Assembly (NCBI RefSeq): GCF_050320075.1
Contig: NZ_CP190018.1
Direction: 5' to 3' (one strand)
Source: Escherichia coli
GTDB lineage: Bacteria > Pseudomonadota > Gammaproteobacteria > Enterobacterales > Enterobacteriaceae
Length of the DNA stretch: 64,000 bases
Shown here: positions 19,729 through 21,922 of the stretch, piece by piece
How positions within the stretch are numbered: the stretch's first letter is position 1
Layout of the letters: each line of letters opens with the position of its first letter
Program-made: the position numbers and the translations under genes
The notes under the pieces: generated by a model
Told to the model about the DNA's origin: nothing
The model's input: only the letters and a program-made list of their open reading frames with translations
Databases searched by the model: none

Positions 19729-20108
19729 TGCATAAATCAGTAGCCGGTGAGTTTCAGAAGGAAGTCGATAATACCACTGATCTATTGGACGATATTTTAA
19801 GCATTCTCGCGCTGCTTGAGGCTGGCGATTGGTCAGAACATTGCACTAAAACAGAGCTAGGCGGTCGGCTTGAAAGAGAGATTACACGACTGATTAGCGA
19901 TGCCCAAAATGATTTGTCACCTGAGCATCTCCCCTGCGATGTAGTTCTTGTGCCAGGGATGAGGATACACGAAGGCGTCAGAACGAAAACATTATTAACC
20001 GCATTACAGAGGAGAGCCGAACTAAGCTCGCGGATAAAGTTGATGCCATCCAAAATATTTGATGTCGTCAAATTTACGCCATCGCAACATACTGAGAGAG
20101 ATAAATGA
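19725..20108 (+). CDS. Hypothetical early accessory protein
   Basis: 127 aa; 4-nt overlaps with neighbours. Confidence 0.5.
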   Translation: MMHKSVAGEFQKEVDNTTDLLDDILSILALLEAGDWSEHCTKTELGGRLEREITRLISDAQNDLSPEHLPCDVVLVPGMRIHEGVRTKTLLTALQRRAELSSRIKLMPSKIFDVVKFTPSQHTERDK

Positions 20109-20731
20109 GCACGGTAGCGAACGATCTCACAGAAGATATTCTCAATGAAATTATTGCTGGTGCAAATACCTCGCTTGAGCAACTTCTTGCGTTAGCACTG
20201 AGAGCCGAACGTCGAGACAGAAATCGTTTTTATGAGCGATTACCAGGGAAGCGACCAGATAGATCGGATGAAGAAGGTTGCGATATAGACTACATGGAGC
20301 CTTCAGAGATTTATCAACTTGGTAAAGATGACGGCTGGAACGCTTATCACGATGCTGTGATGAAGTTGGATGAAAAAGTTAAACCTCTTTCTCGACCGGT
20401 AGATCACGGTTTCCGCGATAACTGCGAATGCTCTAGTTGCCAGACCACGACCCGTATTTGTTCCGAATTGACAGATAAGTCCAGCCTAATCTACGAAGTT
20501 AATGTAGGCGGTAATACATGGGTCGAATGCACAAGAGCTGCATACGTAAGAGCAAAAGACAAGGGTGAATTAACCAGAGTTGTTACCAATCACCCAAATA
20601 ATGAGCTTAAAGATCACCAGATTCGAGAACTGGTGAACGAGTTGAGAGATATTGCGGTTCAGTACCACGGAACGCAGCAATTGCGGGAGAAGATTGCCAG
20701 AGCAGTGAACAACTCAGTCCGTAAAAAATAA
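20105..20731 (+). CDS. Hypothetical early accessory protein (Cys cluster CECSSCQ)
   Basis: 208 aa ORF; last gene before the ORF-free gap. Confidence 0.55.
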   Translation: MSTVANDLTEDILNEIIAGANTSLEQLLALALRAERRDRNRFYERLPGKRPDRSDEEGCDIDYMEPSEIYQLGKDDGWNAYHDAVMKLDEKVKPLSRPVDHGFRDNCECSSCQTTTRICSELTDKSSLIYEVNVGGNTWVECTRAAYVRAKDKGELTRVVTNHPNNELKDHQIRELVNELRDIAVQYHGTQQLREKIARAVNNSVRKK

Positions 20732-20748
20732 GCAATAGTACGATAAAG

Positions 20749-20773
20749 AGGCCCCATGCTCTTGATGGGGCCT
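20749..20773 (-). terminator. Intrinsic terminator for the small peptide gene
   Basis: 9-bp stem AGGCCCCAT/ATGGGGCCT with 7-nt loop, 14 nt after the peptide stop; on the minus strand followed by CTCTTTATCG...TTATTTTTTAC. Confidence 0.45.
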
Positions 20774-20786
20774 GTAGCAACTAGCG

Positions 20787-20870
20787 TTATGGACGCTGGT
20801 TTACGTACTCAATGATCGCTTTGATAATCGCGAACATCGGCGGCACGATTTTGAACAGTAAGTTAACCAT
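20787..20870 (-). CDS. Candidate type I toxin: 27-aa hydrophobic peptide MVNLLFKIVPPMFAIIKAIIEYVNQRP
   Basis: ATG 20870 preceded by GAGG at -8; stop 20787-20789; terminator follows; not in ORF track (below size cutoff). Confidence 0.4.
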   Translation of the reverse strand: MVNLLFKIVPPMFAIIKAIIEYVNQRP

Positions 20871-21117
20871 AACAGGCCTCACTTAGTTTTATCGCGCCTA
20901 GCTGCAAATACCTTTGGGCTTGCCTTTGCAGTTGCAATATCTGTAGTCGCCAGATACTTACGGCACGATTTCGAGTTAAGGTAAGGTTTTAGAGTCACCA
21001 AAAACCTGGACTTAAATCTTCTTTGAGAACAACGATGTTTAGTAAATGGTCATTATTACCTGGTATGACCACTCAACGTTTCTTGATGAATCCAGTACAT
21101 TCGGTTAATCTTAATTC

Positions 21118-21201
21118 AGTCGCCAGATACTTATGGCTCAGGAACAGAGCCGCAAACTCTGTTTCCTTTTAAAAAGCCCAGCCTAGTCAACTGGGCTTTT
21201 T
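21118..21201 (+). ncRNA. Candidate antitoxin sRNA with 5' seed complementary to the peptide mRNA leader
   Basis: Promoter-like TTGATG (21083-21088), 17 bp, TAATCT (21106-21111); 5' AGUCGCCAGAUACUUAUGG pairs with the leader copy at 20945-20963; internal hairpin; intrinsic terminator AGCCCAG...CTGGGCT + T-run at 21171-21201. Confidence 0.4.
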
Positions 21202-21496
21202 AATGTCTATTTTTAACCCAATGAACCTTCAATACCGTAACATCAGTGTCTTGCGAATTAAGATAGTGTGTATAGGTTATGCATGCAAGTACATAACTCT
21301 GTGGATAACTCAGGAAGGAAAAAGTAGCTCCCGCGCAATTTAGGCCAGACAAGGCTTTCGCAAAAGTCAACAGAGAGAAAAAATTTGTTAAAAATAACGT
21401 TTGTTGGAATTGTATATATTTATGCCTTTCAATAGTTAGCATCTTATTAACATCTTTTTTAAGAGATAGAGTTCAAAAATATATAGCTTCAACATA

Positions 21497-21516
21497 TACT
21501 GTATGTGTATACAGTA
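21497..21516 (+). promoter_or_regulatory. LexA (SOS) box TACTGTATGTGTATACAGTA upstream of the humD-like gene
   Basis: Perfect CTGT-N8-ACAG palindrome about 17 bp upstream of ATG 21533. Confidence 0.75.
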
Positions 21517-21532
21517 TTAAGAGGCGAGTATT

Positions 21533-21922
21533 ATGGGCTTCCCTTCTCCTGCGGCGGATTATGCTGAGAGCCGTATTTCTCTTGATCAGCAGATAATTAG
21601 ACATCCTTCAGCGACCTACTTCATGAGGGCAGCTGATAGTCATCATCGTGAGGGAATATTACAGGGTGCATTGCTGGTGGTCGATTCCTCACTTACCCCG
21701 GTTGATGGTTCTCTGCTTGTATGCGCTCTGGATGGGGAATATCGCGTAAAAAGATACCGGAAGTATCCACGTCAGCATCTGGAGGATTTAAGAACCGGTA
21801 AGAAGGAAGCATTGCCAAAGGATGACGATGGATGCACGGGCAGCAATGCCGTGTTTGGTGTGATCACTCACATTATCAACGACGCAAGAAGTGGCGAGTT
21901 TGATGATTGTCCCGTGATGTAG
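21533..21922 (+). CDS. UmuD/HumD-like S24 peptidase (translesion synthesis accessory)
   Basis: 129 aa; UmuD-like sequence; SOS box upstream; no umuC partner in the window. Confidence 0.75.
   Translation: MGFPSPAADYAESRISLDQQIIRHPSATYFMRAADSHHREGILQGALLVVDSSLTPVDGSLLVCALDGEYRVKRYRKYPRQHLEDLRTGKKEALPKDDDGCTGSNAVFGVITHIINDARSGEFDDCPVM

Follow-up and report, generated by a model that had tools for sequence, protein, structure and literature searches.

A candidate mobile type I toxin–antitoxin-like cassette in an unannotated gap of an Escherichia coli prophage

The DNA considered here is a stretch of 64 kb from Escherichia coli (contig NZ_CP190018.1), referred to in its entirety as the window, which comes from a lambdoid prophage integrated beside tRNA-Thr and proA and which is 100% identical to the chromosome of E. 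coli SB0258h1. Within it, 800 bp separate a hypothetical gene from a gene for an S24-peptidase/HumD protein, and these 800 bp bear no annotation in the RefSeq and GenBank records. A first-pass annotation, made from the sequence alone, had proposed that the gap harbours a candidate type I toxin–antitoxin (TA) module, that is, an open reading frame (ORF) for a 27-amino-acid peptide and a divergent small RNA (sRNA) that pairs in trans with the leader of the peptide messenger RNA (mRNA). Here we report a comparative sequence analysis of this cassette by which that interpretation is supported. The peptide and the antisense sRNA very likely form a functional pair, and the cassette as a whole is, with good probability, a self-contained and horizontally mobile unit of the type I TA kind.

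The peptide gene and its predicted divergent small RNA

Coordinates throughout are positions of the whole 64-kb window, and minus-strand features are listed from high to low. The core of the cassette consists of the following elements:

20870-20787, minus strand: 27-codon ORF of the type A peptide, the putative toxin (stop codon included), with an ATG start; product MVNLLFKIVPPMFAIIKAIIEYVNQRP
20880-20877, minus strand: Shine–Dalgarno (SD) sequence GAGG, read from the sequence, 6 nt 5' of the peptide ATG
20773-20740, minus strand: terminator-like hairpin and U-rich tail at the mRNA 3' end; the 9-bp GC-rich hairpin (20773-20749) lies 13 nt past the stop codon and is flagged by a terminator scan
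20945-20964, minus strand: target of the sRNA in the mRNA leader, 75-94 nt 5' of the peptide ATG; its centre lies within a hairpin with the loop UGGCGACUA
21083-21088 (-35, TTGATG), N17, 21106-21111 (-10, TAATCT), plus strand: sRNA promoter, its hexamers conserved across clades
21118-21201, plus strand: predicted sRNA of about 84 nt, the putative antitoxin, in which the 5' seed spans nt 1-20 and is followed by a stem-loop (21140-21167), then an A/U spacer and last an intrinsic terminator that is bidirectional (21169-21203)

These elements lie where the first-pass annotation had placed them, which holds for the 27-codon ORF with its GAGG ribosome-binding site, for the hairpin and U-run past the peptide stop codon, and for the plus-strand promoter whose predicted +1 falls on the repeat and which is followed by a hairpin and a terminator. 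An in-frame GTG is found upstream of the peptide ATG, at 20882. The peptide is hydrophobic, with a grand average of hydropathy (GRAVY) of 0.86 and a net charge of +2, and its length suits a single helix; hydrophobicity, charge and length, as calculated from the predicted product, are compatible with a membrane-active toxin.

Of 5426 complete E. coli genomes, 114 carry the same 480 bp, which are found there at 106 plasmid and 9 chromosomal sites; some 100 PLSDB plasmids share them, as does phage Cyrano, an SSU5-like phage-plasmid. The cassette is without annotation in every one of the E. coli genomes, PLSDB plasmids and phage records in which the 480 bp were found, and annotation pipelines overlook it completely. 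More distant relatives detected by blastn in Citrobacter freundii, Enterobacter hormaechei and E. coli plasmids align only over the part that contains the leader and the sRNA. A pattern search with the two seed copies returned 42 genuine viral contigs, four further viral matches being an unrelated tandem repeat and excluded, while five of the 28 matches in a pattern scan of genome contigs were real (Enterobacter sp., Citrobacter spp. and Kluyvera georgiana) and the remainder were chance matches, mostly outside the Enterobacteriaceae. The resulting comparative set comprises 38 distinct cassettes from prophages and phage-plasmids of Escherichia, Citrobacter, Enterobacter, Klebsiella, Kluyvera and Kosakonia.

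The surroundings of these cassettes are unrelated to one another: chromosomal lambdoid prophages, SSU5-like phage-plasmids of about 110 kb, and Citrobacter and Enterobacter plasmids in which the cassette lies beside phd and rep. Adjacency to a humD gene of high identity is limited to the clade of the window, and the other clades are found in lambdoid nin regions, by genes for DinI-like and diverged UmuD'-like proteins, or by the phd/rep genes of Citrobacter plasmids. Judged by these comparisons, the peptide gene or genes and the sRNA gene move together as one mobile unit.

At least one peptide ORF of the family is present in 38 of the 38 distinct cassettes. Two paralogous types can be told apart, type A with the consensus MVNLLFKIVPP...EYVNQRP and type B with the consensus M(A/Q)(L/M)LLLFLKLAHPV.AII.ALLGY(F/W)KDR, the latter with a GRAVY of 1.0-1.3; in an alignment of both, L4, P11 and I15 are invariant and K7 and R26 nearly so. 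The three architectures found are A alone (as in the window), B alone, and a tandem in which B precedes A on the same strand, the tandem form being frequent among relatives. The ratio of non-synonymous to synonymous differences (pN/pS) is 0.25 for type A (pS 0.40) and 0.22-0.36 for type B (pS up to 0.68). These values identify the peptide ORFs, on comparative grounds, as real coding genes under purifying selection and not as remnants of a longer gene, the latter being an outcome that the first-pass annotation had named as one that would speak against its proposal.

In a few cassettes the peptide ATG is replaced by ATA (type B, in L010 and L041) or by GTG (type A, in the L003 clade) with the ORF intact, and in L010 and L041 the B peptide could still be made as an in-frame fusion from an AUG in the leader. 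The opposite strand of the window carries a promoter-like TTTACG-N17-GATAAT within the peptide ORF (20800-20828, plus strand), which would yield a cis-antisense transcript across the toxin start or may merely reflect the conserved codons YVN and IIK.

The sRNA gene is similarly well defined. Its -10 hexamer and the predicted +1, an A at 21118, are 6 nt apart, and the RNA would begin with AGTCGCCAGATACTTATGGC. The predicted transcript 21118-21201 folds with -34 kcal/mol (z = -5.6) into a 5' tail, a stem-loop and a terminator. Across clades the spacer has diverged, while the promoter hexamers, TTGA(A/T)G and TAA(G/T)CT, are kept, as is their distance from the A of AGTCGCC. The 20 distinct sRNA sequences share a common consensus fold with a free 5' seed, a stem-loop and a terminator, in which compensatory double changes occur at five base pairs.

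Complementarity between the small RNA and the leader

The first 20 nt of the predicted sRNA are a direct repeat of 20945-20964, which makes the sRNA complementary to the minus-strand mRNA in its leader. The two copies of the repeat, AGTCGCCAGATACTTA(C/T)GGC at 20945-20964 and 21118-21137, are identical at 19 of 20 positions with a spacing of 173, and the single mismatch, C versus T, becomes a G·U pair in the RNA duplex, in agreement with the complementarity with one G-U pair that had been claimed for the sRNA 5' end. We estimate the chance expectation of such a repeat within 1 kb at about 1e-4, and the 13-mer of the seed has exact matches only at the two repeat sites in the 64 kb. The predicted duplex measures 20 bp in the window, and most relatives have 24 bp.

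In an alignment of seed and cognate target (18 distinct pairs) 97.7% of the cells of the 24-bp helix are paired, as compared to about 30-35% when the partners are slid by 1-3 columns. Five positions of the duplex have changed on both partners, a number that was reached in 0 of 500 shuffles. Both copies agree in each of three independent seed variants: CTTA, which characterises the window clade, versus CATT; GCTGCC in three Citrobacter loci; and CCGG in a single locus (L007). Wherever only one side differs, the sRNA copy has changed from C to T or from A to G, and changes in this direction preserve G·U pairing. The co-conservation of ORF and seed across prophages, which the first-pass annotation had put forward as a check on its proposal, is thus found: all 38 cassettes keep the ORF, and the duplex is maintained with compensatory changes.

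Repeats of this kind could also be explained at the level of the DNA, either as operator- or iteron-like binding sites for a protein or as the relic of a duplication, with the ORF and the hairpins being incidental. In some plasmids direct repeats 150-180 bp apart do lie beside replication or maintenance genes, and gene conversion could in principle make direct repeats co-vary; gene conversion alone, however, would not explain an asymmetry that is confined to wobble pairs, which would be expected of RNA pairing and not of a DNA-binding site. Against the same explanation stand the observations that all inter-copy differences keep the G·U pairs of the RNA duplex, that the downstream copy begins exactly at the predicted +1 of a conserved promoter and is followed by a covarying stem-loop and a terminator, that the ORF is under purifying selection and that the cassette also resides in integrated prophages. 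We regard a purely DNA-level origin of the repeats as highly improbable.

The mRNA to which the sRNA would bind is itself predicted to be structured (z = -4.7). A leader hairpin (GUAUC/GAUAC) exposes the loop UGGCGACUA, which is the exact complement of nt 1-8 of the sRNA; the loop, being complementary to the sRNA 5' end, therefore fits an initial contact between loop and tail. A further element contributes to the fold of the leader:

20892-20898, minus strand: leader element GGCGCGA, the partner of UCGUGCC at the 5' edge of the target (~20961-20967) or of its copy in the ORF (20841-20851)

In the conserved fold that RNAalifold derives from the alignment, the pairing of GGCGCGA with UCGUGCC closes two leader hairpins, of which the GUAUC/GAUAC hairpin is the first. 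AAAUCGUGCC recurs within the ORF, in the codons K-I-V-P, and this second copy is the preferred partner of GGCGCGA in minimum-free-energy folds; this latter pairing encloses the SD and pairs it, with the result that the probability of the SD being unpaired is 0.13 in the predicted full-length mRNA. A 14-nt repeat, CGGCACGATTT(T/C)GA, occupies 20841-20854 in the ORF (codons F-K-I-V-P) and 20961-20974, where it adjoins the sRNA target. Both copies of the 14-nt repeat are able to pair with GGCGCGA, which suggests that the mRNA might adopt alternative conformations.

Less clear-cut is the start of this mRNA, for which the following element had been put forward:

21001-20996 (TTGGTG), N16, 20979-20974 (TTAACT), minus strand: earlier promoter candidate (element 20974-21006), overlapping the invariant block GGTTTTTGGTGA (21006-20995)

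The sequence TTGGTG-N16-TTAACT is present, but TTAACT fails the -10 criterion of the promoter scan, by which the candidate is not called, and it is not conserved in relatives: the -35-like block of the toxin gene is invariant, and the -10 position reads CAAACA or AACCCA in other clades. A weak but positionally conserved alternative is located about 45 nt upstream of the target and, if used, may place the invariant block GGUUUUUGGUGA at the RNA 5' end as a hairpin. Two other forms of control of the toxin promoter were considered and rejected, sigma-54 on inspection of the sequence (the GC at -12 is not conserved) and LexA since the cassette has no LexA box.

In all clades but that of the window the target contains an AUG (GAAUGUAUCUGG), in place of which the window clade has AAG. 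The leader frame that opens at this AUG reaches within 5-16 nt of the toxin ATG, or fuses in frame with the toxin, and it is open in 35 of 36 variants. Because a second frame is open in 31 of the 36 and the window clade is without the AUG, coupling of toxin translation to an upstream ORF is suggestive, and we keep it as a lead.

A probable type I toxin–antitoxin cassette and its rivals

Comparison of the 38 cassettes provides several lines of support for a functional unit: the conservation of the ORF and its purifying selection, the covarying structure of the sRNA, the conserved sRNA promoter, the co-varying pairing partners and the mobility of the cassette. At the sequence level, the features generally expected of type I TA modules are found, namely a small (<60 amino acids) conserved ORF for a hydrophobic peptide and a dedicated antisense RNA of extended complementarity. 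That the cassette is a true TA is in our judgement likely, on the strength of both sequence and analogy, and in that case it would probably be an as yet unnamed family, new in itself though of a familiar kind, namely type I TA in which the sRNA acts in trans.

In the mechanism that we propose the minus strand would give rise to a structured mRNA of about 230-270 nt whose sole conserved coding unit is the 27-amino-acid hydrophobic, cationic single-helix peptide; in relatives, the mRNA would encode the type B peptide, either by itself or together with type A in tandem. From the plus strand, about 150 bp away and in divergent orientation, the conserved sigma-70-type promoter would produce the sRNA of about 84 nt, whose single-stranded 5' end would touch the loop of the leader hairpin and then zip into the duplex (20 bp in the window, in most relatives 24 bp). 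Judging from istR-1/tisB, agrB/dinQ, agrB/dqlB and orzO/zorO, this duplex would be cleaved by RNase III and/or would block an upstream ribosome entry site. In most relatives it would also mask the AUG that opens the leader frame running to the toxin SD. The peptide would not be made as long as sRNA is supplied. Upon loss of the element or a halt in sRNA synthesis the more stable, probably long-lived mRNA would be translated, and the peptide would insert into the inner membrane and arrest or kill the cell, with post-segregational killing or addiction and possibly abortive infection as the outcome. The location of cassettes in plasmid maintenance regions and on stably inherited phage-plasmids would fit such an addiction role.

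A number of observations weigh against this reading, in addition to the potential of gene conversion to mimic co-variation. The type A peptide is less hydrophobic than DinQ and DqlB (GRAVY 0.86 vs 1.6-1.8). The toxin promoter is poorly defined, the candidate -10 not being conserved and the alternatives being weak, and the open second frame detracts from the open leader frame. Refolding of the leader by the sRNA such that the SD is shut off was rejected as a model: in partition-function folding of 11 variants, blocking the target left the accessibility of the SD and the AUG unchanged, and a simple refolding model is hence unsupported by thermodynamic folding. Lastly, no database model names the toxin, the peptide having no meaningful match in NCBIfam, PHROGs or PADLOC. 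None of the Pfam or NCBIfam models for the Hok, Ldr, Fst, TisB, ShoB and Ibs toxins matched it, Pfam giving nothing even at E <= 10 for the 31- and 57-amino-acid forms, so that the peptide is, as had been remarked at the outset, not recognisable as a named toxin.

The regulatory pair might be real and the peptide no toxin; the peptide would then be a small membrane protein that serves the phage or plasmid, for instance by modulating a host membrane protein, in exclusion or in the timing of lysis, and the sRNA would tune its expression. All of the comparative evidence speaks to function and not to toxicity, no toxin family model matches, the hydrophobicity of the peptide is only moderate with internal K and E residues and a PP motif, and some variants have weak SDs or non-ATG starts. 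Weak translation signals are, on the other hand, typical of toxins. The layout, too, bears the hallmarks of type I TA: the peptide has 26-28 amino acids, the leader is long and structured, the SD is sequestered, and the dedicated, divergent sRNA is complementary over 20-24 nt. Such a layout has been validated in dqlB/agrB (PMC12365149), and cassettes reside in plasmid maintenance regions beside phd and rep. We consider a non-toxic peptide unlikely.

Searches for known relatives of the two components yielded little. With Rfam at the gathering threshold the window returns only a transfer RNA. Below the threshold, the window sRNA scores 27.6 bits on AgrB (RF02891; gathering score 40) with the full model covered, and the sRNAs of relatives score 33-34 bits on OrzO-P (RF02083; gathering score 60), on which the window sRNA has no match. 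AgrB and OrzO-P, the best of these near-matches, are both antitoxin sRNAs of type I systems, which speaks for the TA reading. Membership of the sRNA in AgrB, OrzO-P or RNAI was rejected, the sub-threshold matches being weak and inconsistent between relatives; in our reading of these scores they reflect a generic likeness among short RNAs composed of seed, hairpin and terminator. On the side of the peptide, exact look-up returns only entries named "hypothetical" or "uncharacterized", and a profile search of 1.84 billion representative proteins found 10 clusters, all of them members of the family (some called with the leader attached), with DqlB absent. Literature searches by topic and with literal peptide and seed strings found no description of the cassette.

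The closest comparison is provided by dqlB/agrB of pOXA-48, which has been validated as a type I TA addiction module by toxicity, rescue, compensatory mutations and post-segregational killing (PMC12365149), and the pOXA-48 locus was retrieved along with five homologues. As read from that locus, DqlB has 31 amino acids and its divergent sRNA gene lies about 180 bp upstream. Both systems combine a short, helical hydrophobic peptide (31 amino acids in DqlB, 27 here) with a divergent sRNA of about 80-85 nt that is encoded about 150-200 bp upstream and the 5' part of which is repeated in the toxin 5' untranslated region (UTR), over 35 nt there and 20-24 nt here, and both sit in an unannotated gap near maintenance or replication genes of a mobile element. 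They differ in that the leader and sRNA sequences are unrelated and homology of the peptides is undetectable (NF041473, hhalign), in that the present cassette has two paralogous peptide types, often in tandem, and in that it is known from sequence alone whereas dqlB/agrB is known from experiment. The carriers differ as well: pOXA-48 and many IncL/M, IncI1, IncX and IncB/O/K/Z plasmids for dqlB/agrB, prophages and phage-plasmids rather than conjugative plasmids for the cassette.

It may be asked whether the cassette is a very diverged branch of the DinQ/DqlB-AgrB family of type I TA and not a new family at all. The architecture and the spacing of the copies are alike (about 173 bp here vs about 183 bp in pOXA-48), the peptides are of similar length, and BLASTP finds a likeness to DqlB that is confined to the N-terminus (7/20 identities; M(V/I)NLL, with MVNLL here and MINLL in DqlB). 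The validated pOXA-48 agrB scores only 18.8 bits on the narrow Rfam AgrB model, below the window sRNA, and the Rfam test therefore leaves room for a remote relationship. The protein models point the other way: the NCBIfam DinQ (NF041472) and DqlB (NF041473) models detect each other's proteins and yet do not match the peptide at E <= 10 (DinQ control, 54 bits), hhalign assigns a probability of 6.6% to the relation between the peptide family and the DqlB profile, and the large profile search recovered family members and not DqlB. A tblastn search with DqlB gave no matches, probably owing to low-complexity masking. The leaders, moreover, are not alignable, the LexA box is missing, and the sRNAs of other relatives score best on OrzO-P or RNAI, which marks the weak matches as generic. 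Descent from the DinQ/DqlB-AgrB family strikes us as quite unlikely.

A type I TA family in its own right remains the reading that we prefer, and other systems resemble it to varying degrees. The chromosomal dinQ/agrA-agrB of E. coli likewise has a 27-amino-acid peptide and divergent trans-acting sRNAs that carry a copy of the leader sequence, and AgrB, the best Rfam near-match of the window sRNA, has a similar hairpin loop (AGAGCCnCnAACUC); it differs in possessing two sRNA genes instead of one and a fixed chromosomal locus instead of a mobile element, and the cassette for its part has no LexA box at the toxin promoter, no match to the DinQ model and an AgrB score below gathering. tisB/istR-1, zorO/orzO and shoB/ohsC are type I TA systems with divergent trans-encoded sRNAs that pair far upstream of the ribosome-binding site. 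The cassette shares with them a long structured leader, a sequestered SD and a divergent sRNA whose pairing with the 5' UTR covers about 18-24 nt well 5' of the SD, but there is no peptide homology in Pfam or NCBIfam and the cassette lacks SOS control. The lack of a LexA box in the cassette limits the analogy with tisB and dinQ to the layout; the first-pass annotation had likened the organisation to tisB/istR-1, zorO/orzO and shoB/ohsC, which holds for the layout, and dqlB/agrB rather than tisB/istR-1 is the nearest validated analogue. With hok/sok the cassette has in common the addiction context on plasmids and prophages and possibly, as in mok, an upstream frame that begins within the target of the antisense RNA and extends to the toxin SD. 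In contrast to hok/sok, the antisense RNA is encoded in trans without overlap, the peptide, half as large, is not a Hok protein (no Pfam match), and the leader ORF has no statistical support and is without its AUG in the window clade. By analogy, the cassette would work in a manner resembling dinQ/dqlB-agrB, tisB-istR-1 and zorO-orzO, with membership in none of them being demonstrable.

As a more speculative extension, control could be of a hybrid type, in which a single trans-acting sRNA masks the AUG of the leader frame and thereby imposes a mok/hok-like coupling, by means of an istR/agrB-like sRNA, on one or two paralogous toxin genes. The window clade would have lost the AUG and would rely on cleavage of the duplex alone, and the seed variants CTTA, CATT, GCTGCC and CCGG would define semi-orthogonal specificity groups among co-resident prophages and phage-plasmids. 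We offer this scheme tentatively and with more doubt than conviction.

Wider occurrence and neighbouring elements

If the TA reading is true, it would add an unnamed type I TA family that is present in about 2% of complete E. coli genomes, mostly on SSU5-like phage-plasmids of about 110 kb, and also in lambdoid prophages and in elements of Citrobacter, Enterobacter, Klebsiella and Kluyvera. Modules of this sort stabilise mobile elements, including phage-plasmids that bear resistance genes, and can influence persistence and phage exclusion. The principle is not new, the layout being that of dinQ/agrB, dqlB/agrB, tisB/istR-1 and zorO/orzO; the naturally matched variants of seed and target and the forms with one or two toxins nevertheless make up a ready series for the study of sRNA specificity and of the function of toxin paralogues.

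The cassette and humD together (window 20105-21922) are 99-100% identical to phage Cyrano (L002) and to E. coli plasmids of about 110 kb, which indicates, as far as sequence identity can tell, that the segment has recently been exchanged between integrated and plasmid-borne temperate phages. One contig (L071), assigned to the metagenome-assembled genome of a 'Bacillota bacterium', carries a seed and target of the E. coli type and a humD gene of 96% identity, and is most likely a mis-binned contig of an enterobacterial phage-plasmid.

A perfect LexA box, TACTGTATGTGTATACAGTA, occupies window positions 21496-21515, 18 nt 5' of the start of the humD-like (S24 peptidase) gene, and the humD-like neighbour is therefore SOS-controlled, unlike the cassette. 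A search of 20740-21205 for the LexA consensus (CTGT-N8-ACAG) found no site, the sole one nearby being that ahead of humD at 21499-21514.

Between the sRNA gene and humD, the segment 21255-21420 (minus strand) is about 85% identical to the regulatory region upstream of chromosomal nrdA of E. coli, which is annotated there as the pseudo-ORF ypaB, and contains a DnaA box TTATCCACA (plus strand TGTGGATAA, 21300-21308) as well as an nrdA-like -35 (TTGCAT) and -10 (TATCTT). It is directed leftwards, toward the bidirectional terminator of the sRNA, and could drive a minus-strand RNA of about 75 nt or represent a captured regulatory segment; the same segment is found 5' of humD in P1, P7 and SJ46. 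In clades other than that of E. coli (L004-L007, L013, L017, L022-L025 and L045) a different, conserved non-coding block of about 220 nt lies about 40-300 nt 3' of the sRNA terminator. This block contains one or two DnaA boxes (CTGTGGATAA) and is invariably found after the sRNA gene, irrespective of the gene that comes next; it might belong to the cassette as a third component or represent regulatory sequence that is shared.

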